64,000 nucleotides of DNA from an uncultured Acetobacteraceae bacterium (GCA_964247725.1 CAXTVM010000002.1:30876-94875); one strand, 5' to 3'; positions 1 through 53,930 are shown, numbered from the stretch's first letter. The notes: generated from the sequence alone by a model not told the origin. Program-made: numbers and translations.

Positions 1-1238
1 CGGATCAGCACATGCTGCTTGCGCCCGGCCGAGAGCTTGATCGCGCCCTCGACCAGGTCGGCGCCGGTCACCAGCCGGCTCTCGTCCGACACCGGCCGGT
101 CGTTGATCCGGGCACCGCCGCCGCGCACCAGCCGGCGCGCCTCGCCGTTGCTGGCCGCGAGCCCGCTCTCCGCCAGCAGTCGAAAGATCGGGATGCCGCA
201 CGCGAGATCGGCGGCCGGGACGTCGCGCGACGGCAGTGCCGCCTGCACCAGCTCGCCCTCCTCATAGCTGCGGCGTGCGCTCTCGGCGGCGGCCTCTGCC
301 GCGGCGCGGCCGTGGCAGAGCGCGGTCGCCTCGGTGGCCAGCACCTTCTTCGCCTCGTTGATCTTGGCACCCGTCAGTGCTGCCAGCCGGTCGCACTCGG
401 GTAGGGGCAGGTCGGTGAACAGGCGCAGGAATCGGCCGACGTCGGCATCCTCGGTGTTGCGCCAGAACTGCCAGTAGTCGAACGGCGACACCCGGTCCGC
501 CGACAGCCAGACCGCGCCCGCGGCGGTCTTGCCCATCTTGGCGCCGGACGCGGTGGCGATCAGCGGCGTGGTCAGGCCGTAGACCTGCCGCCGGTCGGTG
601 CGGCGCACCAGGTCCACGCCGGAGACGATGTTGCCCCATTGGTCGGAGCCACCCATCTGCAGCGAGACGCCGTGGCGCCGTCCCAGCTCGCGGAAGTCGT
701 AGCTCTGCAAGATCGAGTAGTTGAACTCGAGGAAGCTGAGGCCCTGCTCGCGCTCCAGGCGCAGCCGCACGCTGTCGAACGACAGCATCCGGCTCACCGG
801 CACGTGGGGACCCACCTCGCGCAGCAGCTCGATGTAGCCGAGGCGGTCGAGCCAGTCGGCGTTGTCGGCGATGATCGTCCCGGTCGGGCCGTCGTCCGCG
901 CGCACGAAGCGTCGCACGATCCCCAGGATGGCCTCGCCGTTGGCGGCGATCCGTTCCGGGGTCAGCAGCTGCCGCGCCTCCTCCTTGCCGGACGGGTCGC
1001 CAATCTTGGTGGTGCCGCCACCGAGCAGCAGCACCGGACGATGGCCGTGGCGCTGCAGCAGGCGCAGCAGCATGATCTGCACCATGGAGCCGACATGCAG
1101 GCAGTCGGCGGTGAGGTCGAAGCCGATATAGCCTGAGATCGGCCCCGCTTGCAGCGCGGCGTCGAGGCCGTCGCGGTCGGTGCACTGGTGGACGAAGCCG
1201 CGTGCTTCGGCCTCCATGAGAAAGTCGCTACGGGGCAT
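1..1238 (-). CDS. tyrS: Tyrosyl-tRNA synthetase (3' end runs off the window)
   Basis: Manual translation from ATG at 1238: MPRSDFLMEAEARGFVHQCTD...AYIGFDLTADCLHVGS (HIGH-like), LQMGGSDQWGNI, KMGKT (KMSKS-like). Not in the ORF track because the stop lies outside the window. Confidence 0.95.
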   Translation of the reverse strand, partial: MPRSDFLMEAEARGFVHQCTDRDGLDAALQAGPISGYIGFDLTADCLHVGSMVQIMLLRLLQRHGHRPVLLLGGGTTKIGDPSGKEEARQLLTPERIAANGEAILGIVRRFVRADDGPTGTIIADNADWLDRLGYIELLREVGPHVPVSRMLSFDSVRLRLEREQGLSFLEFNYSILQSYDFRELGRRHGVSLQMGGSDQWGNIVSGVDLVRRTDRRQVYGLTTPLIATASGAKMGKTAAGAVWLSADRVSPFDYWQFWRNTEDADVGRFLRLFTDLPLPECDRLAALTGAKINEAKKVLATEATALCHGRAAAEAAAESARRSYEEGELVQAALPSRDVPAADLACGIPIFRLLAESGLAASNGEARRLVRGGGARINDRPVSDESRLVTGADLVEGAIKLSAGRKQHVLI

Positions 1239-7590: not shown

Positions 7591-8708
7591 TCCTGCCCGA
7601 CCCGGCGCCGGTCGCGATCGTGCTGCCGCCGCGCGAGGGATTCTCGGCCGACGCAGTCGGCGCGGTCGGCCTGCTGGTGCGGCGGCTGGCGCGGCCGGAC
7701 GAGCTGGTGATCGGCCGCCGGATCGCGGAGGCGCCGTTCGACGACCAACGCTACCTGCCGGTGCCGCCGGGCGGATGGCGGCCGGGCCGCGCGGCCAGCC
7801 GCTACGCCGCCGGGGTGGCGGCTCTCCTGCGCCGGCAGCCGGTCCGGCTGATCGAGGTGCACAACCGGCCGGACGTGGCCGCCGCGCTGGCCCGGCGATT
7901 CCCGCACACGCCGATGCTGCTGGTGCTGCACAACGATCCGCGCACCATGCGCCTCGCGCGCACGCCGCGCTCGCGGGAGGCGCTGGCGCGGGCGATGGGG
8001 ATCGCCACCGTGTCGGCCGACCTGCGCGAGCGGTACCTGGCCGGCACCGCCGGCCTTGACGTGGCGGTGCTGCCGAACTGCCTGGACCTGGCAGCGCTGC
8101 CGCCGGCGTGCCCGGCCGCCGAGCGGGAGCCGACGATCCTGTTCGCCGGCCGGCTGGTGGCGGACAAGGGCGCCGACAGCTTCGTCGCCGCCTGCGCGCT
8201 GGCGCTGCCGGCGCTGTCGGGATGGCGCGCGCTGATGATCGGCGCCGACCGGTTCCGCCCCGGCATCGACGAGACGCCGTTCCTGGCGGCGCTGCGTCCG
8301 ACGGCGGCCCGCGCCGGGGTCGAGCTTGCCGGCTACCGGCCGCACGCCGCGGTGCTGGCGGCGATGGCGCGGGCTGCGATCGTCGTGGTGCCGAGCCGGT
8401 GGCCGGAGCCGTTCGGGCTTACCGCCCTGGAGGCGATGGCGAGCGGCGCCGCCCTGGTCTGCTCCGGCCGCGGCGGCCTCGGCGCGCTGGTGCGGGAGGC
8501 GGCGGCGATCGTGGATCCGGACCGTCCCGCGGAGATCGCGGCCACGCTGCGCCGCCTGGCCGCGGACCCGCTGGAGCGGACACGGCTCAGCGCTGCCGGC
8601 AGGATGCGAGCGGCAACCTACGACCTGCCAGCGGCGCGCGCCCGGCTGGACGCGTTGCGGGACCGCTTGATCCGCCAGACCGCGGTTTCGCCGCGGTCCC
8701 GGGGATGA
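7587..8708 (+). CDS. Glycosyltransferase family 4 (GT-B); start uncertain, probably CTG at 7587
   Basis: ILFAGRLVADKG, VVPSRWPEPFGLTALEAMASG. Confidence 0.88.
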   Translation: MILPDPAPVAIVLPPREGFSADAVGAVGLLVRRLARPDELVIGRRIAEAPFDDQRYLPVPPGGWRPGRAASRYAAGVAALLRRQPVRLIEVHNRPDVAAALARRFPHTPMLLVLHNDPRTMRLARTPRSREALARAMGIATVSADLRERYLAGTAGLDVAVLPNCLDLAALPPACPAAEREPTILFAGRLVADKGADSFVAACALALPALSGWRALMIGADRFRPGIDETPFLAALRPTAARAGVELAGYRPHAAVLAAMARAAIVVVPSRWPEPFGLTALEAMASGAALVCSGRGGLGALVREAAAIVDPDRPAEIAATLRRLAADPLERTRLSAAGRMRAATYDLPAARARLDALRDRLIRQTAVSPRSRG

Positions 8709-10087
8709 TGAGGGCCGCCCGGGCGTGGCAGGCCGCCGCCCTTCGGGCGATGACGGTGTTGGCGCTGGCCTGTCCGCTGTTCCTGCTGCACGGGCGCGGC
8801 ATTGCCGAGGCGGTGATCGACCTCGTCGCCGGCCTGTTTCTGGGATGGTCGTGGCTCGGCCGCGACTGGAGCTGGCTGCGGCTGGGCTGGATGCGGTGCG
8901 CGCTGGCCTGGTGGGGCTGGCTGGTGGTGTGCTCGGTGCCGGTTGGGCCGCTCGGCATCGGCGGCTGGGCCGGGCTGCTGCAGGCGGTGGCGGTGCTGCG
9001 GCTGCCGCTGTTCGTGGCGGCGCTGCAGCACTGCGTGCTGGCGCAGGCGGCGCCGCGTCGATGGATGCGCGGCCTGCTGGCGGCGGCCTGCCTCTATCTG
9101 CTGGCGCAGATGCTGCTGCAGGCGGTGACCGGCGCCAACCTGTTCGGCATGCCCCGGTTCCCGGACGGCACCCTGACCGGGCCGTACGACAAGCCGCGCG
9201 CCGCGGCGCCGCTGTCGCGGCTGCTGCTGCCGGTGATGCTGGTGGCCGCGACCTGGCTGCTGCAGCGGGCGGGGCGCGCCCGCCCCGAGGCCTGGCGCTG
9301 GCTCCTGCGCGTCGTGTCGCCTCTGCCGCTGCTGCTCGGGCTCGCCGCCATGGTGTTGGCCGGGCAGCGCATGCCGCTGCTGCTGACCCTGCTCGGGCTG
9401 CTGGTGGCCGGCCTGCTGCTGCCGCGGCTGCGCGTGCCGCTGCTGGCCGCGCTGACCTCAGCGCCGCTGCTGGTGGCGGCCTCGGCGCTGGTGGCCCCGG
9501 CCGGTTTCCACCACCTGGTGATCCTGTTCGACCGGCAGATCACGCATTTCGGCCACAGCTCGTACGGTCTGATCTACACCCGCGCGCTGTCGATCGCGGC
9601 CGCCGACCCATGGACCGGGCTCGGCTTCGACGGCTTCCGCCACGGCTGTCCGGACCCCGCCTACTTCCACGACTGGCGGCCGTTCGGTCGGCCCGCGGGG
9701 CTCGGCGGCGGCGCGGCCATCTGCGTGCAGCACGCCCACAACCACTATCTGCAGGCGTTGACCGATGCCGGCGTGCTCGGGTTGGCGCTGTTCTGCGCGA
9801 TGGTGGCCGCCTGGCTCGTCGCTCTGTCGCGCGGCCTGGCGGGCCCTGCGCGCGATGCTGCCGGGGGGGCGCTGCTTGCCTGGCGGGTCGGGCTGTTCGC
9901 CTCGGTCTTCATCCACGAATGGCCGATCGCCTCGTCGAGCGCGTTCACCAACATGCCGCTCGGCGGCTGGTTCTTCCTGCTGCTGGGCATGGGGCTGGCC
10001 GAAGCGGGCGCGGCTCCCATATCCCAGCCGATTCGAGGGGCAAGGCCCCCGTCCACGACCTGCCGGAGCGAGACCGACCATGGCTGA
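8705..10087 (+). CDS. O-antigen ligase/polymerase-like (Wzy_C/WaaL) membrane protein
   Basis: Many TM segments, QRMP, IYTRALSIAAADPWTGLGFDGFR, HAHNHYLQ motif; ATGA overlap with the GT4. Confidence 0.82.
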   Translation: MMRAARAWQAAALRAMTVLALACPLFLLHGRGIAEAVIDLVAGLFLGWSWLGRDWSWLRLGWMRCALAWWGWLVVCSVPVGPLGIGGWAGLLQAVAVLRLPLFVAALQHCVLAQAAPRRWMRGLLAAACLYLLAQMLLQAVTGANLFGMPRFPDGTLTGPYDKPRAAAPLSRLLLPVMLVAATWLLQRAGRARPEAWRWLLRVVSPLPLLLGLAAMVLAGQRMPLLLTLLGLLVAGLLLPRLRVPLLAALTSAPLLVAASALVAPAGFHHLVILFDRQITHFGHSSYGLIYTRALSIAAADPWTGLGFDGFRHGCPDPAYFHDWRPFGRPAGLGGGAAICVQHAHNHYLQALTDAGVLGLALFCAMVAAWLVALSRGLAGPARDAAGGALLAWRVGLFASVFIHEWPIASSSAFTNMPLGGWFFLLLGMGLAEAGAAPISQPIRGARPPSTTCRSETDHG

Positions 10088-11054
10088 CCCAGCGACCGCC
10101 GACCTGGTGCCGGTGACCGTGCTGACCGGCTATCTCGGCGCCGGCAAGACCACGCTGCTGAACCATATCCTCACCGCGCAGCACGGTCGCAAGTATGCGG
10201 TCGTAATCAACGAGTTCGGCGAGCTCGGCGTGGACAACGACCTCGTCGTCGATGCCGACGAGGAGGTGTTCGAGATGAACAACGGCTGCATCTGCTGCAC
10301 CGTGCGCGGCGACCTGATCCGCATCTTGGGCGCGCTGATGAAACGGCGCGCGCGGTTCGACGGCATCATCGTCGAGACCACCGGCCTCGCCGACCCGGCG
10401 CCGGTGGCGCAGACCTTCTTCGTCGACGAGGAGGTCCGCTCGAAAACCAGGCTGGACGCGGTGGTGACCGTGGTCGACGCCCTCAACCTGCCGGCGCGGC
10501 TCGCCGACAGCGCCGAGGCGCGCAACCAGATCGCGTTCGCAGACGTGATCGTGCTGAACAAGACCGACCTCGTCTCCGAGGCGGACCTCGCGGCGCTGGA
10601 GGCGCGCATCCGCCGGATCAACCGCCACGTGCGGCTGCATCAGGCGGTGCGCGGCCGCGTGGCCCTGGCCGACGTGCTCGACCAGGGCGGCTTCGACCTG
10701 GCACGGGCGCTGGAGGTGGCGCCGGACTTTCTCGAGGACGACAGTCACGGCCACGACGAGGATGTCGGCAGCCTCTCCTTCACGGTGTCGGAACCGCTCG
10801 ACCAGTCGCGGTTCCAGGCCTGGATCGGCGCGCTGCTGCAGGAGCAGGGCCAGGACATCCTGCGCTCGAAGGGCATCCTCGACTTCGCCGGCGATGGGCG
10901 CCGATACGGGTTCCAGGCGGTGCACATGATGGCGGACGGCAATTTCATCGGGCCGTGGCGGGCGGACGAGCCGCGCGGCTCCCGGATCGTGTTCATCGGC
11001 CGCAACCTCAACCGGTCGCGGCTGCGTCGCGGCTTCGAGAGCTGCCGCGCCTGA
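10080..11054 (+). CDS. COG0523 / CobW-family metallochaperone GTPase
   Basis: LTGYLGAGKTT, NEFGE, GCICC, ETTG, NKTD, short His stretch, C-terminal RSKG. Confidence 0.93.
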   Translation: MADPATADLVPVTVLTGYLGAGKTTLLNHILTAQHGRKYAVVINEFGELGVDNDLVVDADEEVFEMNNGCICCTVRGDLIRILGALMKRRARFDGIIVETTGLADPAPVAQTFFVDEEVRSKTRLDAVVTVVDALNLPARLADSAEARNQIAFADVIVLNKTDLVSEADLAALEARIRRINRHVRLHQAVRGRVALADVLDQGGFDLARALEVAPDFLEDDSHGHDEDVGSLSFTVSEPLDQSRFQAWIGALLQEQGQDILRSKGILDFAGDGRRYGFQAVHMMADGNFIGPWRADEPRGSRIVFIGRNLNRSRLRRGFESCRA

Positions 11055-12133
11055 TGGCGGGGCCGGGGGCCGCGATGCCGGCAGCACTTGCCGATCCGGA
11101 CCAGCTGCTGCGCGGCCGCGGCGACAGCCGGACCGTCGACGGGCACGTCATCGCGTGCGCCGCCTCGCGGGACGGCCGACTGGCCGCGTTCGCCACCGGC
11201 GAGGGCGAGCTGCATCTGGCGTCGCTGCAGCCGGGCGAGGATGGCTGGCGCTGCATCGCCGTGCATGACGGCGCGCTGCTGTCGCTCGCCGCCGACGTCC
11301 GGCCCGGCGGCTTCGTCACCGGCGGCGACGACAACGCGCTCCGCCGCATCGACGGCGACACCGGCGCGGTCGTCCGGCTCGGCCAGGGGCGGCGCTGGGT
11401 CGAGCACGTCGCGAGCCACGCGGACGGCCGGCACCCTGGGCGCGGGCTGATCGCCGCCGCGGCTGGCCGGCAGGTCGAGCTGCGCGACGCCGACGGCATC
11501 CTGCTGAAGACGCTCGATCACGACAGCACGGTGTCGGGCCTCGCCTTCGATGCCAAGGGCAAGCGCCTCGCCGCTTCGCACTACGGCGGTGCCTCGCTGT
11601 GGTTCACCGCGTCGACGAGCAGCAGCCTGCGCCGCCTGGAGTGGAAGGGCAGCCATGTCGGCGTGGTCCTGCATCCGGACGGCGAGGCGCTGGTGACGGC
11701 GATGCAGGAGAACGAGCTGCACGGCTGGCGCCTCGCCGACGGCCACACCATGCGCATGAGCGGCTATCCGCAGAAGACGCAGTCGCTGGCGTTCTCGCGC
11801 AATGGCCGCTGGCTCGCCAGCAGCGGCGCCGAGGCGGTGGTGCTGTGGCCGTTCCACGGCGGCGGCCCGATGGGCCGGGCACCCACGGAGCTGGCCGGGG
11901 TGGCGAACTCGGTCTGCACCCGGGTTGCCTGTCATCCTCAGCACGACATCGTCGCCGCCGGCTTCGACGACGGCACCGTGCTGATGTCCGACATCGCGAC
12001 GCGCCGGGTGTTGCCGGTCTGCGACGCGGGCGGGGGGGCGGTGACGGCGCTGGCGTTCGGCGGCGGCGGATCGTGGCTGGTGTTCGGGACCGCCGCCGGC
12101 CGCATCGCGCGGATCGATCTGTCGGCACGCTGA
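11054..12133 (+). CDS. WD40/beta-propeller repeat protein
   Basis: Repeats such as VSGLAFDAKGKRLAAS, SLAFSRNGRWLASSG, VAAGFDDG; TGATG-coupled to the COG0523 gene. Confidence 0.85.
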   Translation: MAGPGAAMPAALADPDQLLRGRGDSRTVDGHVIACAASRDGRLAAFATGEGELHLASLQPGEDGWRCIAVHDGALLSLAADVRPGGFVTGGDDNALRRIDGDTGAVVRLGQGRRWVEHVASHADGRHPGRGLIAAAAGRQVELRDADGILLKTLDHDSTVSGLAFDAKGKRLAASHYGGASLWFTASTSSSLRRLEWKGSHVGVVLHPDGEALVTAMQENELHGWRLADGHTMRMSGYPQKTQSLAFSRNGRWLASSGAEAVVLWPFHGGGPMGRAPTELAGVANSVCTRVACHPQHDIVAAGFDDGTVLMSDIATRRVLPVCDAGGGAVTALAFGGGGSWLVFGTAAGRIARIDLSAR

Positions 12134-12344
12134 CGCTGGAAAACGACCGGCAGCGTATTTCGTTACTGAAAATCTCATGAACACGCTACGGTCTCAAATA
12201 TTAGCTGCTTTTCAAGTTTGTTTTATTGTTCTTTAATAACTTGGTAGAAGTTCAGGGAGAACGGGGGACACACTGGTGGCGCTGTATGGATGACCGATGA
12301 CCGGTCTCGCAAAAGCGCGACAGCCCAACAATCAGGACCGCACC

Positions 12345-13319
12345 ATGACCTTCATCAGCAACCGGACGAGGCGGATCGACCAGGCTGGCCTCGGTTCAGC
12401 GGAGAATGCTTCCCATCGACCGGTGTCGGACCGGCCGGCCCAGGCCATGGAGCTTCGTCACCTCGACTACTTTCAGAACAACTACGAAGCCGACATGCGG
12501 ATCTTCTGGAGCATGATCCAGCTCCGGCACGGCAACGCGCGCATGACGGTGCCATTCCTGCACGACGTGCTGGCGATCCAAGGCATGGTTGCGCAGCTTC
12601 GGACCGAGCAGATCACGCTCGGACGTGATCCCGTACAATACGTCGTCTTCGGCTCGGACATTCCCGGCATCTACAGCCTCGGCGGCGATCTCGCGCTGTT
12701 CGCAGACCGTATCCGTATGCGAGATCGCGACGCTCTTGCGGCGTATGCCCATCTCTGCATCGACGTCGTCTACACCAATCACGTGGCGTTCGATCTGCCA
12801 ATCGTCACCATCGGCCTGGTGCAGGGCGATGCGCTCGGTGGCGGCTTCGAGGGCGCGCTGTCCTACGATGTCCTGGTAGCCGAGCGCAGCGCCAAGCTCG
12901 GGTTGCCGGAAGTGCTGTTCAACCTGTTCCCCGGGATGGGCGCCTACAGTTTCCTCTCGCGCAAGCTGGGCTCGGCCGGTGCGGAGGCGATGATCATGTC
13001 GGGCCGGATCTACACCGGCGCCGAGCTGCATGCGATGGGCGTGGTCGACGTGCTCGCCGAGGATGGCGAGGGCGAGGATGCGGTCAGGGATTACGTGGCT
13101 CGTAACAACCGCAAGTTCAACACCCAACAGGCGCTGCTGCGGACGCGCCGACGGGTCGCGCCGATCACCGACGCCGAGTTGCGGGACGTGGTCGAGATCT
13201 GGGTCGATGCGGCGATGCGTCTGGGCGAGGCGGATCTGCGCAAGATGGACCGGCTGATGTCGGCGCAACGACGTCGATTGGCTGCGATGGAGCCTGCGCA
13301 TGCGGTGGCGGCCGAGTAG
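12345..13319 (+). CDS. rpfF: RpfF-type crotonase (diffusible signal factor synthase); alternative start 12297
   Basis: YSLGGDLALF, LVQGDALGGGFEGALS (first catalytic Glu), LPEVLFNLFPGMGAYSFL (second catalytic Glu), ELRDVVEIWVDAA. Confidence 0.88.
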   Translation: MTFISNRTRRIDQAGLGSAENASHRPVSDRPAQAMELRHLDYFQNNYEADMRIFWSMIQLRHGNARMTVPFLHDVLAIQGMVAQLRTEQITLGRDPVQYVVFGSDIPGIYSLGGDLALFADRIRMRDRDALAAYAHLCIDVVYTNHVAFDLPIVTIGLVQGDALGGGFEGALSYDVLVAERSAKLGLPEVLFNLFPGMGAYSFLSRKLGSAGAEAMIMSGRIYTGAELHAMGVVDVLAEDGEGEDAVRDYVARNNRKFNTQQALLRTRRRVAPITDAELRDVVEIWVDAAMRLGEADLRKMDRLMSAQRRRLAAMEPAHAVAAE

Positions 13320-13360
13320 GTCCGCTGGCTTGATCCGCCGGCCGCGGAGTAAGCACGGGT

Positions 13361-15940
13361 TCAGTGTCGCCGGAAGCTGGACTGGAGCCGATCCGGTTGA
13401 GCTTTCGGAGGCATCGTGGCCATCGAGGTCGTGCTGCTCCGGAGCCGACGCAGCTCATCCGACAGGCGTCCGGCCAGGGCGACACCACGGCTGGACAGCT
13501 CGGTCGCGCGGACGTCGCGACAGGCGCTGCACAGCTCCTGGATGGCGGCTGCGCCGATGTTCGCGGCGCAGCTTCTCAGCGCATGGGTTTGGTTGCGGAA
13601 CTCCGCGAGATCCGTCCCGCGCGCGGCGTCCGCGATGCCGGCTATGAGCTCTCCGGCATCGATGGCGAAACTTTCTACGAGCTCATCCAGGAATTCGCGG
13701 CCTCCCAGATCCGTGAGGTTCTGCATGATCTGCTGATCGAACACCGGATGCAGATCGGACGTCAGGTCGCGGGACACCTCATCCCGATCGGGCGTGACCG
13801 GCCGGGCGGTCTTTTGCGCGAGCCGCTCCAGGGTCGCTGCGAGCGTGAAGACCTGGACCGGCTTGGTCAGGCACATGGTCATCCCGGCCTCGTGACACGC
13901 CTGCTCCATCTCGGGCGTCGCGTCCGCAGTCAGGGCGACGATTGGGATGGCAGGTTCGCCCAGCTCGGCGAAGCGATACAGCTTGGTGGCCTCGATACCC
14001 GACATGACGGGCATGTTCACGTCCATCAGGACGATGTCGAAGCGTTCCTGTTCGAGCGCGTCGAGGACGGCCGATCCGTCCTTGACCAGCCGCATCGTAT
14101 GGCCAGCCCGTTCCAGCACGCGTGCTACCACGCGCAGGTTGATGTCGTTGTCGTCGGCGACCAGCACATGTAGAGGACCCACGGCGACCGCCGGCGTAGG
14201 AGGCGACGCATCCGTCCCATCGCGCAGCTCCGGCCGTCCCGCAACCGTGCGCACGGCGAGGCGCAGCTCGGCGTCGCTGGCCTGGCGGTCGAGCCAGGTC
14301 CCGACACGGCGCCGGAACGACATCTCCGCAGGCCGCCTGCCAAGCCCTGCCGCGTCGACGACGGCGATCACCGGATGGTCGCCAAACGATCCCAGGAAGT
14401 CGTCGGTCGCCGGGTCCAGCGTCATGTCCGGTGTCACCCGCTCGCGCTGCAGCAGCAGCAGTGACCGCACCGACGATCGCGGCGGATTATGCAATCGGAA
14501 CAGGGCGTCCTGCTCGTCCTCGGCTTGCTCGGCGGCCAGGCCGAGCGCATCCATCCGCCGCCGCATGCGGCTGACCAGGAGCGCGTCCTCGAACAGGAGC
14601 ACGATTCGGATGTCGCTGATCGAGCGGTCGGGCCGGCCGGCCGCTTCGGCGTCGTCCCCGGCTGTTGTGCCGGTCTCGCACTCGATGTCAAACCAGAACG
14701 TGCTGCCGCTGCCGGGCAAGCTGTCGACGGCGATCTCGCCGCCCATCAGCGTCACCAGCTGACGGGCGATCGACAGGCCGAGGCCGGTGCCGCCGAAACG
14801 GTCGATGATGGTCGGCTCGGCCTGCGTGAAGCTGTCGAAGATGCGCTCGCGCGCTTCCGGCGCGATGCCGATGCCGGTGTCGGCGACCTCGAAGCGCAGG
14901 CGCTGTCGCGCGGCACCGATCTCGTGGGCATCGACGGACACGGTGACCTGGCCGTCCGACGTGAACTTGATCGCGTTGCTGACGAGGTTGAGCAGCACCT
15001 CGTAGAGGTGGCGCCGGTCCGAGACGATCACCGGCGCCACCCGCGGCGTGACGTGGAACCGCAGCCGCAGCACCTTCAGGCGCGCCTGCGGCGCCAGCAG
15101 CTCGCGGATGTCGGCGAGCAGGTCCGGCAGGTCGAGCGGCTCCAGCCGCACCGGCATCCGGTTGGCCTCGATCCGGGAGAGATCCAGGACGCCGCCGATC
15201 AGCGACAGCAGGGCCCGCGTGCCGACGCCGAGCGCGTCGGTCAGTTCGCGCTGCTCCGGCCCCAGCTGCGTGCCGCGCAGCAGCGAGGTCGAGCCGACGA
15301 TGGCGTTCAGCGGCGTGCGCAGCTCGTGGCTGACGTTGGCAAGGAACCGGCTCTTTGCTCGATTGGCCTCCTCGGCAACGCGCTTGGCTTCGGACAGCTT
15401 GCGGATCAGGCTGCCGGCATAGGCGGGCAGGATCAGCAGGGCCAGCAGCAGGCCGGTCGAGAGCAGCGGCTGCTGCCGCCAATAGACGGTCGACCCGATG
15501 ACCAGCCCAAAGCCCGCAAGCGCGATGCTCATGGCAATGAACAGGTAGGCCAGTCCAAAACGGAAGCCGTTGCCGAAGATGATCCACAGGTAGATGGGAT
15601 AGAACACGGCGTTGGTCTGGCCGTTCAGGTGCAGCTCGATGGAGAGCGCCGCGAGGTCGGCGACGAGAGCCAAGATCCGGCGGGGATGACTGGCAGCCGG
15701 CCAGAGCTGGACCGCGGCAACCGTCAGGATGCCGAACAGGCCGTAGGCGATGCACATGATCTTCGTCAGGACGGGTTCCGGCTGCGGCGTGAGGCCGAGA
15801 TAGACCGCGATCAGTCCGAAGAAGGCGAGCCGGTTGAGCGCCGTCTCGTGCTCGAGGTCCGGGCGCGCGTCCAGGCGGCCGCGCACGCGGAGCCGCAGCG
15901 CCTGCAAGGCCACACGGAGCGTGGACCGGGCGTCAGCCAA
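13361..15940 (-). CDS. rpfC: RpfC-like hybrid sensor kinase (multi-TM, HisKA, HATPase, degenerate REC-like region, REC, HPt)
   Basis: N-terminal DLEHETALNRL and YLWIIFGNGFRFG resemble the RpfC sensor region as I recall it; H-box SHELRTPLNAI; GGTGLGLSI; REC LMDVNMP; HPt HALRSCAANIGA; convergent with rpfF. Confidence 0.85.
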   Translation of the reverse strand: MADARSTLRVALQALRLRVRGRLDARPDLEHETALNRLAFFGLIAVYLGLTPQPEPVLTKIMCIAYGLFGILTVAAVQLWPAASHPRRILALVADLAALSIELHLNGQTNAVFYPIYLWIIFGNGFRFGLAYLFIAMSIALAGFGLVIGSTVYWRQQPLLSTGLLLALLILPAYAGSLIRKLSEAKRVAEEANRAKSRFLANVSHELRTPLNAIVGSTSLLRGTQLGPEQRELTDALGVGTRALLSLIGGVLDLSRIEANRMPVRLEPLDLPDLLADIRELLAPQARLKVLRLRFHVTPRVAPVIVSDRRHLYEVLLNLVSNAIKFTSDGQVTVSVDAHEIGAARQRLRFEVADTGIGIAPEARERIFDSFTQAEPTIIDRFGGTGLGLSIARQLVTLMGGEIAVDSLPGSGSTFWFDIECETGTTAGDDAEAAGRPDRSISDIRIVLLFEDALLVSRMRRRMDALGLAAEQAEDEQDALFRLHNPPRSSVRSLLLLQRERVTPDMTLDPATDDFLGSFGDHPVIAVVDAAGLGRRPAEMSFRRRVGTWLDRQASDAELRLAVRTVAGRPELRDGTDASPPTPAVAVGPLHVLVADDNDINLRVVARVLERAGHTMRLVKDGSAVLDALEQERFDIVLMDVNMPVMSGIEATKLYRFAELGEPAIPIVALTADATPEMEQACHEAGMTMCLTKPVQVFTLAATLERLAQKTARPVTPDRDEVSRDLTSDLHPVFDQQIMQNLTDLGGREFLDELVESFAIDAGELIAGIADAARGTDLAEFRNQTHALRSCAANIGAAAIQELCSACRDVRATELSSRGVALAGRLSDELRRLRSSTTSMATMPPKAQPDRLQSSFRRH

Positions 15941-18098
15941 CGTCGGCGTACCGCGGCTCGTGGCGCAGCATCTCGATCAGCTCGGCCAGCTGCAGCGGCC
16001 GGCTGAAGTAGAAGCCCTGGATCTCGTCGCAGCCCTCACCGGCTAGGTGAGTCAGCTGCTCGACGGTCTCGACGCCCTCGGCCACCACCGTCATCTGCAG
16101 CTCGTGGGCAAGGCTGATGATCGCCTTCACGATCGCGGCGTCGTTGGGATCGGTCAGCAGGTTGCGGACGAAGGACTGGTCGATCTTGAGCCGGTTGACC
16201 GGCAGGTTCTTCACGTGGCTCAGAAACGAGTAGCCGATACCGAAATCGTCGATCGCGACGCGCACGCCGAGCAGCCGCAGCTCCTTCAGCACCGCGGCGG
16301 CGGCGGCCAGGTCATCCACCAACTCGTGCTCGGTCAGCTCCAGCTCGAGTAGGGATGGGTCGAGCCTGGTCTCGGCCAGTACCGCGGTGATCATCTGACG
16401 GGTGCGCTCGGTGCCGACATGGACCGGCGACAGGTTGACGCCGACCTGGACCGGGGCAAGCCCGGGCCGTTGCCATTGCAGCGCATCGGTGCAGGCGCGC
16501 CGCAACGCCCAGGCGTCGATCTCCGCGATCAGCCCCTCGGCCAGCGGCAGGAACGCGCCCGGCCCCAGCAGCCCGTCGGTCGGGTGGTTCCATCGGATCA
16601 GGGCCTCGACGCCGGCGATGCGGCCGGTCGCCAGGTTCATCTGCGGCTGGTAGTACAGCACGAGTTCGTCCCGGCGCAGCGCCTGGCGGAGCTGCTGGCG
16701 CAGATGCAGGGTGCGGCTGACGCGCGTGTTCATGTCGTTGACGAAGAAGCGGTAGCTGTTCCGGCCGTCGAGCTTGGCCTGGTACATCGCGAGGTCGGCG
16801 TTGCGCAGCAGCTCTTCGGGCTCGGTGCCGTCGCCCGGCGACAGGGTGATGCCGATGCTGCCGCTGATAGAGATCTCCTGGCCGCCGTGCAGCGACGGCT
16901 GGCTGATGCGCTCGATGATGGCGGCGGCGAGCTGGGCGGCTTGGTCGGGGTGTTCGATCTGGGTTTGCAGGATCGCGAACTCGTCTCCGCCGATGCGGGC
17001 GACGGTGGCGTTGCCGTCGACGCTGGCCACCAGCCGGGCTCCGACCTCCTTCAGCAGCATGTCGCCGAAATGGTGGCCCATCTGGTCGTTGACCGCCTTG
17101 AAGCGGTCGAGGTCGAGGAAGTGCAGTGCCAACGACCGGCCGTTGCGACCATGGCGTGCCAGGCGGTGCTGCAGCCGCTCGCGCAGCAGCAGGCGGTTCG
17201 GCAAGTCGGTCAGCCCGTCATGGCTGGCGACATGCTGCAGGTGCCGCTCGGCGAGCTTGCGGTCGGTGATGTCGAGCGAGGTGGTCAGCACGCTGGCGAC
17301 GGTGCCGGCGCCGTCCCGCAGCGGCGACTTCGTGGTCAGCAGGATGCGGCGATCCCCACGCGGGTCGACCACCTCCTGCTCGAACGCCGGCAGCGGCTTG
17401 CCGCTGCGGAACACCAGCAGGTCGAGCGAGCGGCTGCGCCGTTGGTAGTCGTCGCCGAACACCGGGCAGCCGTTGACGGGCGCCGACGCCGGCCGGGGCC
17501 GCGTCATTAGCGGGGCCTGGAGCGAGGTCTGGAGCGAGGCCTGAGACGCATTGACGAACACGATCTCGCCGTCCCGGTCGGTGGCGCTGATGAAGGCGGG
17601 CACGGTGTCGATCACCTGCGCCAGCGCCTCACGGCTGTCACGCACCAGCTTCTCGCGCGACAGCTCGCTGTTCTGCAGCTCGAGCTCAAGCTCGCGGGCG
17701 CGTGCCTGGATGATGCGGTGCTGGCGGTGCATGCGCAGCAGGTTGCGGCCGCGGGTCGTGAACTCGGCGTGGTCGATCGGGCTGCGCAGGAAGTCGGTGG
17801 CTCCCGCCTCCAGCGCCTGCAGGCGGAACGAGCGGTCGTCGTAGGCGGTGATGACGACGACCGGGATATCCACGCATTTCGGCTGCAAGCGCAGGCTGCG
17901 GGTGAACTCGGCGCCGTCCAGATGGGGCATCTTGAAGTCGGTGATGACGAGGTCAGCCTCATTTGCGGCGAGCCAGGCCAGTGCCGCCCGCGGATCGTCG
18001 AAGGTGACGACGCCGGCGCCGGTCTCGAGCGACTCCGACAACCGGGCATAGATGTTCCGATTGGTCAGGCGGTCATCGAGGATGACGATCAGGGACAT
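15933..18098 (-). CDS. Response regulator REC-PAS-GGDEF-EAL (c-di-GMP turnover)
   Basis: Start MSLIVILDD at 18098; ITDFKMP; PAS/PAC TTKSPLRD; GGDEF intact; VEALIRW and IDDFGIGYS; overlaps the rpfC start by 8 nt. Confidence 0.92.
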   Translation of the reverse strand: MSLIVILDDRLTNRNIYARLSESLETGAGVVTFDDPRAALAWLAANEADLVITDFKMPHLDGAEFTRSLRLQPKCVDIPVVVITAYDDRSFRLQALEAGATDFLRSPIDHAEFTTRGRNLLRMHRQHRIIQARARELELELQNSELSREKLVRDSREALAQVIDTVPAFISATDRDGEIVFVNASQASLQTSLQAPLMTRPRPASAPVNGCPVFGDDYQRRSRSLDLLVFRSGKPLPAFEQEVVDPRGDRRILLTTKSPLRDGAGTVASVLTTSLDITDRKLAERHLQHVASHDGLTDLPNRLLLRERLQHRLARHGRNGRSLALHFLDLDRFKAVNDQMGHHFGDMLLKEVGARLVASVDGNATVARIGGDEFAILQTQIEHPDQAAQLAAAIIERISQPSLHGGQEISISGSIGITLSPGDGTEPEELLRNADLAMYQAKLDGRNSYRFFVNDMNTRVSRTLHLRQQLRQALRRDELVLYYQPQMNLATGRIAGVEALIRWNHPTDGLLGPGAFLPLAEGLIAEIDAWALRRACTDALQWQRPGLAPVQVGVNLSPVHVGTERTRQMITAVLAETRLDPSLLELELTEHELVDDLAAAAAVLKELRLLGVRVAIDDFGIGYSFLSHVKNLPVNRLKIDQSFVRNLLTDPNDAAIVKAIISLAHELQMTVVAEGVETVEQLTHLAGEGCDEIQGFYFSRPLQLAELIEMLRHEPRYADVG

Positions 18099-18288
18099 GG
18101 AAGGCGGGCATCTCGCGGATGGACAGGACGATGGCGGCTGCGGCGAGCCGGCACGATCCCGGTTCCACGCCGCGAGCGTATCGCGTCTCCGTTCAAGGTC
18201 CCAAACCATTCACGCCGGGGATCGTGCCCACGACGGTGTGGCGGAGGGCATCCGAGCCTTGAAACCCAACGCACCGCAAGCTCGACAT

Positions 18289-18303
18289 GTTCCCTATCCG
18301 TTC
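18289..18303 (+). promoter_or_regulatory. Alphaproteobacterial LexA (SOS) box abutting a TTGACG -35 element
   Basis: GTTC-CCTATCC-GTTC exactly matches GTTC-N7-GTTC; followed immediately by TTGACG at 18304. Confidence 0.75.
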
Positions 18304-18372
18304 TTGACGGGAATCGGGTTGGCCCTCTAGCGTGCCGGTGGCGATCGCCATCGGTCGCCGGGGGAGTTCAGC

Positions 18373-19479
18373 ATGTTGCAGCAGCTGCCGTCCGCCTCCG
18401 GCCAGCCGCCGCCGACGCGCAGGGGCCGGAGCGTCTCCGGCAATCCGGGCAACCGGTTCGAGGCGCTGGCGACGCAACCCTACGACGACGGTTGGGACAG
18501 CATCGCGGCGGAGCAGCTGCTGCCGCCGCCGGTCGCCACCACGCTGACGCGGGACCACAGCCGCAGCGTCATCGCCCGCAACGACAGCCCCGACCTTGGC
18601 TTCGACCGCTCGATCAACCCGTATCGTGGCTGCGAGCACGGCTGCGTCTACTGCTATGCCCGCCCGAGCCACGCTTTCCTGGGCTATTCGCCCGGCCTCG
18701 ATTTCGAGACCAGGCTGACCTTCAAGCCGGACATCGCCGCCCTGCTCGACGCCGAGCTGCGCCGCCCGGGCTACCAGCCGCGGCCGATCGCGCTCGGCTC
18801 CAACACCGATCCGTATCAGCCGGTCGAGCGGACGCTGCGCCTGACCCGCCAGGTGCTGGAAGTGCTGGAGCGCTTCGGCCATCCGGTCAGCATCGTGACC
18901 AAGTCGGCCGGCGTGGTGCGCGACCTCGACATCCTGGAGCGGATGGCCGGGCGCGGGCTGGTGCGGGTTTGGCTGTCGGTCACCACGCTGGACGTGGAGC
19001 TGGCCCGGCGCATGGAGCCGCGCGCGGCGGTCCCGGAGCGCCGGCTGGCGAGCCTCGCACGCCTCGCGGCGGCCGGCATTCCGGCCGGCGTGCTGGCCGC
19101 GCCGATGATCCCGGGCCTCAACGACCACGAGCTTGAGCGCATCCTGGCTGCGGCGGCCGCGGCCGGTGCCGGGGGCGCCGCCTACACGCTGCTGCGGCTG
19201 CCGCTCGAGCTCCGGCAGATGTTCGAGACGTGGCTGCATCAGCATCATCCCCAGCGCGCTGCCCGCGTCCTCGCCTTGATACGCGAAACGCGTGAAGGAG
19301 AGCTTAATGACAGCCGCTTCGGCCAGCGTTTCAGGGGCCAGGGGCCCTATGCGGACATGCTGGCGCAGCGCTTCCAGCGTGCCGCCGCCCGACACGGGCT
19401 CGGCCATCCCGCCCCGCTGGAGATGCGGCATTTCGCGGTGCCGACATCGACGCGGCATGGGCAGATGGCGCTGTTCTGA
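18373..19479 (+). CDS. PA0069/Rv2578c-family radical SAM protein (spore photoproduct lyase-like)
   Basis: SINPYRGCEHGCVYCYARP (CxxxCxxC), GSNTDPYQPVE, IVTKS, MIPGLND, C-terminal QMALF. Confidence 0.92.
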   Translation: MLQQLPSASGQPPPTRRGRSVSGNPGNRFEALATQPYDDGWDSIAAEQLLPPPVATTLTRDHSRSVIARNDSPDLGFDRSINPYRGCEHGCVYCYARPSHAFLGYSPGLDFETRLTFKPDIAALLDAELRRPGYQPRPIALGSNTDPYQPVERTLRLTRQVLEVLERFGHPVSIVTKSAGVVRDLDILERMAGRGLVRVWLSVTTLDVELARRMEPRAAVPERRLASLARLAAAGIPAGVLAAPMIPGLNDHELERILAAAAAAGAGGAAYTLLRLPLELRQMFETWLHQHHPQRAARVLALIRETREGELNDSRFGQRFRGQGPYADMLAQRFQRAAARHGLGHPAPLEMRHFAVPTSTRHGQMALF

Positions 19480-31477: not shown

Positions 31478-34400
31478 TTATCGGGACATCACCGGAGAAG
31501 GAATCCGACCCTTCAACTCCCTGACTAGGAAATCAAGATTGGTCGACAGGCCGTCGACCAGCAGTCGGGTCACCGGTTTACCCGCCTTGATCACGTGATC
31601 GAGTAGCTGCGCGGCCGCAGCAAGTTGCTCAAAACCGAACATGCCGGCGCTGCCAGCCAGGATATGGGCCGCCGAGCCCAGCGTATGATCGGGGCATGCG
31701 GGAACATCCAACCCCTGTAGCGCCCGCAGCAGCTCTTCACCGCGGTCCTTGATTGTCGACAGATAAGACTCGATCGCCTCGGGTGAGAGAATGGCAGTCA
31801 TGCTGTCAAACGTGGCAATGTTAAGCGGTACAGGTCGGCCGTCCGTCTGCGCATCGAGAGCGGATATGGGGAGACACTGCGTATTACCGGCATGAGCGGG
31901 ACTAATCTTCCCCACATCCGGCTCGACCGTTACGGGCCCAGCCCGGCCGGACGTGCTGCGAGAGGCGAGAAGACGCTCCAACGAGGCGAGCAGAGCGGCT
32001 TGCTTGAACGGCTTCGCCAGATGAGCGTCCATACCGGCTGCGTAGCACTCCTCGATCTGCTCGCTGAAGGCCTGTGCCGTCAGGGCGACGATCGGCACCC
32101 TGCCCCTTGGGCCTGAGAGCAGGCGGATCCGACGTGTCGCCTCAAGGCCATCTATTCCAGGCATCTGAACGTCCATGAGGATAACGTCGAAATCGTCCAC
32201 CGAGGCCGTATCGACGGCTTCGGAGCCGCCCTCCGCCAGCGTGACCTCATGGCCGGAGGACTGAAGGAACGAGGCTGTGATGTCCCGGTTCATCGCAATA
32301 TCGTCAACCACCAGGATCCGGGACCGCTCCAGGAGCCCCGTCCTCTCGCTCCCGGACGAAGCTCGTTCCATGCTGGGATTGACAGTTGGGGATACGTCCG
32401 GAGCCGAGGACAAGTCCAGCCAGAACACGCTTCCTCCGTCTGGTCCGTTTCGATGTTCTATGCGAGCCTTCAGCATGGCGGCAATCTGCGCCGAGAGCGC
32501 CAGACCTAGACCGGCCCCCTCGACCGTTGAATCGTTGAAGCCAAGACGCTCGAACTTCTGGAAGAGGCGCGGCTTAAGCTCGATCGGGATGCCGGGCCCG
32601 GTGTCGGCGACCTCGATCCGGACGCAGAGGCTCGCGATGGGCTGAAGACGCAGTTCGACGGAGCCGTGAGCGGTAAACTTTATGGCGTTGCCGAGCAGGT
32701 TTAGCAGGATCTGCCGCAGCCTGCCGGCATCGGTGACGATCCAGCTAGGCGTCCCCGGAGCGATGACCAGACCAAGCCTCAAGCCCTTCGCTTTCGCGAC
32801 CGGTTCGACAAGGTCGGCACATGCACGTGCTAACAGGGGCAGGTCTACCTCGCTGAGCTTCAACTCGACGGTTTCCGCCTCGATCGCGGAAAGGTTGAGC
32901 ACCCTGTTTATCATCTGGAGAAGGTGCTCGCCGGCCTCCAGCATGGCCGAAACCCAGTGAACCTGCTTGTTATTGAGCTCACCTCCCAACTTCAGCAGCT
33001 CGGCGTAGCCGAGGATGCCGTTCAAGGGTGTCCGCAACTCGTGGCTCATTCCCGCAAGGAAGCGTGACTTGGCCTGATTGGCCCGTTCCGCCTGATCCTT
33101 GGCGCGCGCCAGGTGGCGAGCGAGACGGTTCAGCTCCACGTTTGCCGTCCGCAGCTCCTCAGCCTGCGCATAACGCTCCGAGATGTCACGGAGGGAGAAG
33201 ATCAGCGACGTGGCACCTCCGGCCGGAGAGGCCTGCACGGCGTCGACCGTCGCCTCGATCCAGACCCAGAGCCTGGTTACATGTCGAACACGGTAGGTGA
33301 CGCAGGCGCGCCCGCACGCGTCCGTCAGGAGAGGCTGGACCGCCTTGATGATCTCTCCGGCATCCTCGGGGTGCATCGTGTCTTCCAGCCTGACGCCGAG
33401 CATCTGCTCCGGCTCGCGACCAAACACGGTTCGGCAGGCTGGCGAGCAGTATGTGCACCTGAAATGCTGATCGAGGCACATGATCACTTCGCTCGTGCTG
33501 TCCGCGAGCATGCGGTACCGCTCTTCGCTGTCATGCAGCACGGCCTCAACCGCGCGACGGTCCGTGATGTCGCGCACGTTGGCGATGACCTGCATATCCT
33601 CGTCGCCGTGTTGCAGCAGCCGCGCACGCGTCTCCACCCAGAGCAGCGACCCGTCCTTGCAGATATAGCGGAAGCACGACGTGACCTGGGCGGCACCGGC
33701 CAGCAGGGCTGGTACGATGTCCGCCAGCATCTGCCTGTCGTCGGGGTGGACGATATCGGCCGATCTTCTGGTGACGGCCTCCTCGACGCTCCATCCGGTG
33801 AGCCCGGTGAACGCGGGCGACGCGTAGCTTCGCGAACCGTCCAGCGTCATGCAGACGATGGCGTCGCTCGAATTCTCCGACAGCAGGCGGTAGCGATGTT
33901 CGGCCTGCTGCCTGATCCGGACCTGGCGGGCGAAGCGGCTGCCCGCCAGCGCCAGGGCGAGCGACACGAGGAGGCTGACCGCCAGGTGAAGCTCGGCGTC
34001 GGCGCGCCAGCCGGCCAGCACCTCGTCGAGCGCGTGGGCCACGACGATGAAGAGCGGGTAGTCGCCGACCATGCGGAAGCTGCCCAGGCGCGTGATGTCG
34101 TCGAACGGCGAAGGGTTGTCGAAGCTGCCCGAGACCTGCCCGGCGCTGATCCTGGAGAATACCGCTCCGGAGGATATGACCTCGGCGATCTTGGTATGTT
34201 TGCCGGTGCGCGCGATGACGAATCCCCGGGTGGAGGCAAGCGTGATCGCGCCCTGCGGACCGATCGCGAAGCTGCCGTAGTACTTCAGAAGGACCGCCAC
34301 CGAGATCCTCGCGCGCACGACCCCGGCGAAGTGGCCCTGCGGATCGTCGAGGCGACGCGACACCGTGATGCTCAACTGCCCGTCGGCGCGCGAGCGGATG

Positions 34401-53810: not shown

Positions 53811-53883
53811 GCGCCCGTAGCTCAATGGTCAGAGCGGGCCGCTCATAACGGCTTGGTTGCGGGTTCGAGTCCTGCCGGGCGCA
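53811..53883 (+). tRNA. tRNA with CAT anticodon, most likely tRNA-Ile2 (lysidine); CCA not encoded
   Basis: Acceptor GCGCCCG/CGGGCGC, D arm GCTC-AATGGTCA-GAGC, anticodon loop CTCATAA, T loop GGTTCGAGTCC, discriminator A followed by CGT. Confidence 0.92.
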
Positions 53884-53930
53884 CGTCCTCGTTCCGCCCT
53901 ACCCCACACGCCTATGTCGGGAGCTTCGCC

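Follow-up and report, generated by a model that had tools for sequence, protein, structure and literature searches.

What does an RpfC-type sensor kinase signal through when another regulator stands in the place of RpfG? The question is raised by a locus in a 64,000-nt stretch of DNA, hereafter the window, from an uncultured Acetobacteraceae bacterium (GCA_964247725.1, CAXTVM010000002.1:30876-94875). What is understood of signalling by diffusible signal factor (DSF) comes almost entirely from Xanthomonadaceae, with RpfC/RpfG, and from Burkholderia and Cronobacter, with RpfR. A first-pass annotation of the window had described an rpfF gene facing a two-gene unit, composed of an RpfC-like kinase and a response regulator with receiver (REC), PAS, GGDEF and EAL domains. 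It had proposed that this triad is a third wiring of DSF signalling. The gene set, the boundaries and the features that it named were all found in place. We propose, with moderate confidence, that the locus is a DSF-family RpfF/RpfC-type signalling module in which RpfG is replaced by a homologous receiver fused to PAS-GGDEF-EAL, and that it works as set out below.

The three genes occupy positions 12345-18098 (Table 1). The crotonase gene, rpfF-like, is convergent with the two-gene minus-strand unit, and 41 nt separate its stop codon from that of the kinase gene. The regulator gene lies directly 5’ of the kinase gene on the same strand. The two genes overlap by 8 nt, the TGA stop of the regulator and the TTG start of the kinase both lying inside GTTGGCTGA. 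Upstream of rpfF, the GC content reaches a minimum of 30% at 12180-12239, as compared with about 70% in the flanks, in agreement with the AT-rich stretch annotated there. No sigma-70 consensus was found upstream of rpfF by a simple scan. Scans for promoter and terminator consensus sequences and searches for inverted repeats in the three intergenic regions returned nothing beyond chance. For comparison, we used a Xanthomonas-type rpf cluster carried by a metagenome contig (L083), with an RpfF that shares 97% identity with 3m6m. Its genes read rpfB, rpfF, rpfC, rpfH, rpfG, lysS. The convergent layout that had been likened to that of Xanthomonas is seen in both the window and this cluster.

On homology, the crotonase is a member of the RpfF family and a putative synthase of a DSF-family signal. 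Its best matches in the PDB are RpfF from Xanthomonas campestris pv. campestris (Xcc; 3m6m, 8e-51), Burkholderia Bcam0581 (5fus) and Cronobacter RpfF (6dgn, 1e-49 for both), along with the related crotonase 7zq7. The next crotonase family in the PDB is far weaker (5e-19, against about 1e-50 for the RpfF entries). Identity with the RpfF of the comparison cluster is 45% over 212 aa. Both catalytic glutamates, the motifs of which had been recognized in the earlier annotation, are kept (E169 in GGGFE and E189 in LPEVLF). Nine residues are involved in RpfF catalysis or substrate binding: Glu141, Glu161, Met170, Trp258, Leu136, Gly137, Gly138, Gly85 and Leu276 (PMC9864630). All nine are found in the window crotonase as G113, L164, G165, G166, E169, E189, M198, W286 and L304. 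With a constant offset of +28, these correspond, in the same order, to G85, L136, G137, G138, E141, E161, M170, W258 and L276 of the Xcc protein. They are also invariant in an alignment of the window crotonase with ten relatives. The NCBIfam model PRK08788 is passed with 354 bits (cut-off 177; the Xanthomonas-type RpfF has 428). The family is widespread and carries the label “DSF synthase” in JGI.

The kinase is RpfC-like over its whole length, input domain included, and these similarities place it as an RpfC family member. It is 38% identical to the Xanthomonas-type RpfC over residues 19-424 (E 4e-83) and 36% identical in the part containing the receiver and the histidine phosphotransfer (HPt) domain. 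The input domain, for which no Pfam family match was found, is in its residues 19-185 33% identical to RpfC (E 2e-21) and 33% identical to RpfH (E 1e-20). The best receiver-only PDB match of the kinase receiver is the REC domain of RpfC itself (3m6m_D, 9e-23). The kinase also has H205, D640 and H786 for the phosphorelay, together with receiver K693. The EH-containing N-terminus, the WxxxGNGxRxG motif, the REC domain and the HPt domain reported for this protein were all retrieved. The motif reads W119-IIFGNGFRFG, and W-x3-GNGxRxG is invariant in 96 sequences. NCBIfam was also tried as a membership test for RpfC and RpfG and was set aside, there being no specific model: genuine Xanthomonas-type RpfC and RpfG give generic matches only (TorS/BarA; NosR/PhoB).

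The DSF-contact residues of Xcc RpfC, defined experimentally, are R15, D17, S18, E19 and Q22 (PMC5391125). The RpfC of the comparison cluster has exactly these residues in its N-terminus, MKSPLPWLKRRLSGRADSEHAQ. In the window kinase, the sensor peptide R26-P-D-L-E-H-E-T33 (15842-15865, minus strand; residues 26-33) keeps three of the five positions, with R26, D28 and E30 equivalent to R15, D17 and E19. Across 58 alphaproteobacterial kinases the motif is R-P-D-S-E-H-E-M/Q, as compared with R-A/P-D-S-E-H-A-Q in Xanthomonadaceae. The family consensus at the contact positions is R, D, S/T, E, then M or Q. A further feature sets the window kinase apart from Xanthomonas RpfC. The segment that separates the catalytic domain from the receiver measures 133-173 aa in 62 out of 62 alphaproteobacterial-type kinases, whereas it measures 22-54 aa in Xanthomonadaceae RpfC. 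In the window kinase, this extra segment of about 150 aa (residues 428-588) has no Pfam match. Its profile matches receiver structures (7c1j, 5.7e-7; 5tqj, 4e-6), so that we describe it as a degenerate receiver-like domain. Reading the segment SLLLLQRE by eye, we take the Gln of the window protein to stand where relatives have an acceptor-like Asp.

Positions in the regulator are given in the 721-aa numbering, which is offset by 37 aa from that of a 758-aa open reading frame. Against the Xanthomonas-type RpfG receiver, the regulator receiver gives an ungapped alignment of 131 aa with 41% identity (102 bits). This exceeds the score of the best PDB receiver, PleD REC1, found both with phmmer and with a family profile (71 bits). 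The reciprocal comparison agrees. The overall likeness to RpfG noticed earlier is thus borne out. The string FTTRGRNLL, cited earlier as an example of this likeness, belongs to the window regulator; the Xanthomonas-type RpfG has LRARCSNLL there. All 93 partner receivers keep D8, D9, T84 and the acceptor D54 unchanged.

The output half of the regulator has no HD or HD_5 Pfam match and contains GGDEF and EAL domains instead. The GGDEF motif (370-374), nearly invariant in the family alignment, is accompanied by the GTP/Mg residues. The EAL motif is at 498, and all 47 family members share the EAL catalytic residues E498, R502, N555, E587, E590, D617, D618, K638, E674, E677 and Q694 without exception. 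Both motifs had been annotated as intact, with no obvious RxxD I-site; the corresponding position reads DGNA in the window regulator and RxxD in about 45% of relatives. The two domains look catalytically competent. This part is generic in type, MorA (4rnh, 7e-110) and DibA being the closest proteins. Judged by its domains, the regulator is outside both the RpfG and the RpfR families, of which it lacks the defining domains.

Is the regulator an RpfG with another output? To address this point, we aligned the receivers of 61 PAS-type and 32 HD-GYP-type partners and built a neighbour-joining tree. The PAS-type partner receivers form a single clade. Their mean identity with betaproteobacterial RpfG-type receivers is 44%, and the latter are 44.5% identical to the Xanthomonas RpfG receivers. 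The PAS-type receivers are therefore as close to the betaproteobacterial ones as these are to Xanthomonas. They are less like PleD (34%) and the kinase’s own receiver (25%). On these identities and the census of loci described next, homologous receivers occupy the same genomic position and carry different outputs. The output-domain swap put forward by the first-pass annotation is thus supported.

For the census, an RpfF alignment served as the query against reference genomes, each species being represented by one. The 80 closest loci among the matches listed (44-69% identity) were read. The scan patterns are biased towards the alphaproteobacterial type, and the counts of architectures describe these 80 loci rather than all RpfF loci. 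In tblastn, the GGDEF, EAL and PAS query segments were shifted by 37 aa, which still covers the domain cores. Pfam bore out the variant classes in the cases scanned with it. An RpfC-like kinase is convergently downstream of rpfF in 63 of the 80 loci, which is far beyond chance. Eight loci are too short to judge. Among the 72 others, the partner is a REC-PAS-GGDEF-EAL protein in 47, plus one frameshifted case. A different type of REC-PAS protein takes this place in 14 loci (REC-PAS alone, REC-PAS-HisKA-HATPase or REC-PAS-GAF-PAS) and a REC-HD-GYP protein in 4 (Methylophilaceae, Sulfuriferula, Sedimenticolaceae and one mislabelled metagenome-assembled genome, MAG). In the REC-HD-GYP relatives, which belong to Beta- and Gammaproteobacteria, the regulator is in the same position as the PAS-type partner. 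At six rpfF-like loci, kinase and regulator are both missing within 8 kb.

The triad with GGDEF-EAL spans Acetobacteraceae, Hyphomicrobiales, Inquilinus, a Sphingomonadales MAG and a Burkholderiales MAG. Its carriers include Inquilinus limosus, Gluconacetobacter liquefaciens (L056), Microvirga, Ancylobacter, Xanthobacter, Aureimonas, Bosea and Rhizobium spp., and relatives of Roseomonas. Orthologues of the regulator form more than 120 clusters of about 715 aa (53-86% identity) from Acetobacteraceae and Hyphomicrobiales. When the search was started from the regulator, the full triad was found on 5 out of 6 homologue contigs, the sixth being interrupted by an insertion sequence and by the end of the contig. 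The triad is not special to the host of the window and is the common alphaproteobacterial form. As for this host, likened earlier to acetic acid bacteria, its best named matches (Lichenicola and uncultured Acetobacteraceae) place it in Acetobacteraceae near Lichenicola. It is not a classical vinegar bacterium.

Homologies, intact motifs and conserved gene linkage are thus found for all three proteins. On this basis, a pathway can be sketched, all biochemical steps of which, signal synthesis and phosphotransfer included, are inferred. The conserved catalytic and pocket residues suggest that the crotonase would make a cis-2-unsaturated fatty acid from a 3-hydroxyacyl-acyl carrier protein. By homology with RpfC and RpfH, the signal would be sensed by the N-terminal peptide of the kinase and its membrane input domain. 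The kinase would then autophosphorylate at H205 and pass the phosphate, via D640 and H786, to D54 of the regulator co-transcribed with it, a relay suggested by conservation of the operon and by an acidic pocket left intact. Phosphorylation may shift the balance of the regulator’s two cyclic di-GMP (c-di-GMP) enzymes, most probably by raising the EAL phosphodiesterase activity, in analogy with RpfG, RpfR (PMC4504480, PMC6361424) and PdeK/PdeR. The phosphodiesterase activity of PdeR, a REC/GGDEF/EAL regulator, is indeed triggered by a kinase (PMC6637768).

Several points weigh against this pathway. What mainly holds down our confidence in a simple RpfG-like relay is that the conserved receiver lysine is missing from the regulator. 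This lysine (K109 in CheY) contacts the phosphoryl group, takes part in its coordination and is needed for activation. The window regulator has Ser106 in its place (17781-17783, minus strand). Position 106 is Ser in 58 and Thr in 3 of the 61 PAS-type partners, as opposed to Lys in 32 of 32 HD-GYP partners, and 118 of 119 database homologues have Ser there. We also queried 1.84 billion representative proteins with the window receiver. With few exceptions, the approximately 100 receivers closest to it (identity of 47% or more) carry Ser, Thr or Ala at the Lys position, and more distant ones have Lys. In the 101 proteins with these closest receivers, many of them fragments, Pfam recognized PAS_4 (53), GGDEF (30), HisKA (20) and EAL (14). 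There is therefore a distinct Lys-less REC-PAS_4 cassette. With Ser instead of Lys, phospho-signalling is possibly altered or absent, and a simple phospho-activation as in RpfG is not assured. In the sensor peptide, L29 and T33 replace Xcc Ser18 and Gln22. Both residues also depart from the consensus of their own family (Ser/Thr and Met/Gln, respectively), which may reflect a different ligand or weakened sensing. The crotonase fails the narrow RpfF equivalog NF053515, with 210 bits for a cut-off of 550, whereas the Xanthomonas-type RpfF reaches 599 bits. A betaproteobacterial RpfF encoded beside RpfC and RpfG is also below this cut-off, with 225 bits, so that the failure reflects the breadth of the model rather than a different family. 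No rpfB is found within the 64-kb window, and the sequencing runs that contain the locus sequence are DNA runs only. Finally, sequence does not tell whether the output goes towards cyclase or phosphodiesterase activity.

The chief rival explanation is that of a direct or dual input. Here, the PAS_4 domain of the regulator would itself bind the fatty acid, and the Lys-less receiver would be a docking or modulatory domain for the HPt domain or RpfF and not a conventional phospho-switch. A second input would come from the kinase or be gated by it. We regard this explanation as unlikely, although it accounts for the clade-wide loss of the lysine and for the REC(Ser/Thr)-PAS_4 pair being a conserved cassette with varying outputs (GGDEF-EAL, HisKA-HATPase, none or GAF-PAS). 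Cytoplasmic PAS domains that bind DSF are known, namely the PAS domain of RpfR and the PAS_4 domain of RpfS (PMC4504480, PMC6361424), and the RpfC REC domain, which binds RpfF (PDB 3m6m), is a precedent for receiver docking. However, the invariance of D8, D9, D54 and T84 argues that the phosphorylation chemistry is kept. In addition, the regulator PAS has no significant phmmer match with the BDSF-binding PAS domain of RpfR (BDSF, Burkholderia diffusible signal factor), a result that is uninformative rather than a negative proof. The AlphaFold2 model of PAS_4 has a PAS fold, with a predicted local distance difference test score of 77. A Foldseek search with this model, non-discriminating in this case, gave generic PAS/LOV matches only, with RpfR outside the top 50.

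Two other explanations concern the signal and the target. The crotonase could have a metabolic or membrane-lipid role, with the kinase-regulator pair sensing another membrane or fatty-acid cue such as lipid stress; the gene linkage would then reflect a shared physiological theme and not autoinduction. In the open literature searched, no member of the alphaproteobacterial family has a demonstrated signal, and the NF053515 score, the six loci without kinase or regulator and the absence of a nearby rpfB would all fit this idea. It would nevertheless make it hard to explain why the proteins match RpfF, RpfC, RpfH and the RpfG receiver so specifically and collinearly, in a convergent layout like that of Xanthomonas. 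The RpfF functional residues are all kept and the sensor peptide retains most of the DSF-contact motif, so that we find the absence of cell-cell signalling quite improbable. Still less probable, in our view, is that the relay ends on a response regulator encoded elsewhere, the GGDEF-EAL protein being a phosphate sink or an independent enzyme. Branched RpfC signalling has been proposed in Xanthomonas (PMC4504480), and the regulator receiver is atypical in lacking the lysine. But the kinase and regulator genes overlap, their adjacency is kept in dozens of genera from several orders, and the receiver is a homologue of the one in RpfG, which is the established partner of RpfC. We therefore retain the relay from RpfC-type kinase to REC-PAS-GGDEF-EAL regulator as the preferred reading. 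A broader scheme, which we hold as tentative and somewhat doubtful, would describe an unstudied DSF-type pathway in wide use among Alphaproteobacteria. In this scheme, an RpfC-like sensor with an added pseudo-receiver would address a distinct clade of Lys-less receivers, invariably fused to PAS_4 and joined to varied outputs (GGDEF-EAL, histidine kinase or none), possibly integrating phosphorelay and direct fatty-acid binding. The window locus would represent its commonest form, and RpfG a sister branch in which Lys was retained and HD-GYP acquired as output.

How does the preferred reading compare with known systems? The DSF perception routes described in a 2015 review are RpfC/RpfG, RpfS, RpfR, BCAM0227 and PA1396 (PMC4504480). 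The arrangement of the window locus matches none of these, consistent with the claim of a third wiring distinct from RpfC/RpfG and RpfR. We found no description of an RpfF/RpfC system wired to a REC-PAS-GGDEF-EAL regulator in the open full-text literature searched, subscription-only papers being outside this search. The triad is real and widespread and, within that literature, apparently uncharacterised. With the Xanthomonas rpfF/rpfC-(rpfH)-rpfG cluster, it has in common the convergence of rpfF with a kinase operon, the RpfF residues, homologous kinase parts and a c-di-GMP output. The Xanthomonas RpfG has an HD-GYP output and the receiver Lys, whereas the window regulator has a PAS-GGDEF-EAL output and Ser106. 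Moreover, rpfH and rpfB are present in the Xanthomonas cluster and absent from the window locus.

The RpfF/RpfR systems of Burkholderia cenocepacia and Cronobacter also link an RpfF-type synthase to a PAS-GGDEF-EAL enzyme with intact motifs, and the window crotonase is about as close to Bcam0581 as to Xcc RpfF. In RpfR, however, the N-terminal domain (FI) is PAS-like and no kinase is required (PMC6361424), whereas the window regulator has an N-terminal receiver and an adjoining membrane kinase. Neither the PAS nor the FI domain of RpfR has detectable similarity to the window regulator: no such domain appeared in single-sequence and profile searches of the PDB with the regulator, among the 60 best profile matches. 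The possibility that the FI domain is a degenerate receiver, the window regulator resembling an ancestor of RpfR, was considered and rejected. A REC-PAS profile gave only receivers among its 60 best PDB matches and no RpfR entry. The description of FI as PAS-like also counts against a receiver origin (PMC6361424). By description, the nearest precedent for the proposed action of the regulator is PdeK/PdeR of Xanthomonas oryzae. Here, as in RavS/RavR of X. campestris, a regulator with REC, GGDEF and EAL domains is triggered by its cognate kinase (PMC6637768). PdeR has no linked RpfF synthase or RpfC-type sensor. Likewise by description, PA1396 of Pseudomonas aeruginosa combines an RpfC-like input domain with a partner other than RpfG (PMC4504480). 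PA1396 lacks both an HPt domain and a neighbouring synthase, works with a DNA-binding partner and senses foreign DSF, in contrast with the window system, which has both an HPt domain and an adjacent synthase.

If the triad is functional, DSF-type communication would reach a large part of the Alphaproteobacteria, including Acetobacteraceae (among them Gluconacetobacter liquefaciens), many Hyphomicrobiales (Microvirga, Ancylobacter, Xanthobacter, Bosea, Rhizobium sp.) and Inquilinus limosus. The triad would moreover bridge the two solutions known so far, with Xanthomonas-like sensing on one side and an RpfR-like PAS-GGDEF-EAL output on the other. The varied outputs carried by one homologous receiver constitute a natural experiment on output-domain exchange in two-component systems, and the clade-wide loss of the lysine raises a testable question on receiver chemistry.

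Table 1 Features of the rpfF-kinase-regulator locus (positions in the window; residues in the encoded protein)
Feature	Position	Residues	Strand	Basis or remarks
rpfF-like crotonase gene	12345-13319	324 aa	+	Pfam ECH_1, ECH_2
RpfC-type hybrid sensor kinase gene	13361-15940	859 aa	-	TTG start; Pfam HisKA, HATPase_c, Response_reg, Hpt
Kinase, input domain (short N-terminal sensor peptide and membrane helices)	15386-15940	1-185	-	homology to RpfC/RpfH
Kinase, HisKA		195-259	-	Pfam
Kinase, HATPase		308-420	-	Pfam
Kinase, extra degenerate receiver-like domain	14177-14659	428-588	-	alignment and profile match to receiver structures
Kinase, receiver and HPt	13436-14167	592-703 (D640) and 753-835 (H786)	-	Pfam
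REC-PAS-GGDEF-EAL response regulator gene	15933-18098	721 aa	-	Pfam Response_reg, PAS_4, GGDEF, EAL
Regulator, receiver (REC)	17754-18089	4-115	-	Pfam Response_reg
Regulator, PAS_4	17256-17609	164-281	-	Pfam, 1.4e-8
Regulator, GGDEF and EAL	15996-17228	291-447 and 468-701	-	Pfam
AT-rich intergenic stretch, presumed promoter region 5’ of rpfF	12150-12270		+	GC 30-42% in 60-nt windows

Among the loci of the census, those with other outputs on the REC-PAS partner include L028, L031, L043, L046, L050, L057, L061, L063, L067, L071 and L079. A HisKA-HATPase partner suggests a receiver-kinase and a further relay. In the Skermanella loci L050 and L063, and in L079, the partner is on the opposite side of rpfF. 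About 2 kb of extra sequence lies between kinase and regulator in L008 (Inquilinus limosus) and in L019; the latter record, titled Mycobacterium sp. KBS0706, has an Inquilinus-like layout and is probably mislabelled. The MAG titles Terriglobia (L024), Thermoplasmata (L049) and Enterobacteriaceae (L072) look like binning errors. Two loci look decayed: a frameshift divides the regulator of L023, and in L124 (Caldovatus aquaticus) the kinase region, uncalled save for a REC-HPt fragment, abuts a transposase at the contig end. L014, L016, L024, L066, L076 and L081 have an RpfF-like gene with no RpfC-like kinase, homologous receiver or GGDEF-EAL gene within 8 kb, and may encode orphan synthases or synthases paired with an unknown receptor.

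Around the module, synteny between the window (8108-19479) and L125, one of the contigs reached from the regulator homologues, extends over genes for a Wzy_C membrane protein, cobW, a WD40 beta-propeller, rpfF, the kinase, the regulator and a radical SAM protein. The L125 regulator is only 58% identical to that of the window despite this kept synteny, which indicates a module in a stable chromosomal context and not a mobile element. A second hybrid histidine kinase is encoded in the window at about 31900-33124 on the minus strand. It has no RpfC-type input domain, and is 40% identical to the RpfC-like kinase in the core and 40% in the receiver. The sole RNA gene detected in the window by ARAGORN and Rfam is a tRNA-Met (CAT) at 53811-53884 on the plus strand.

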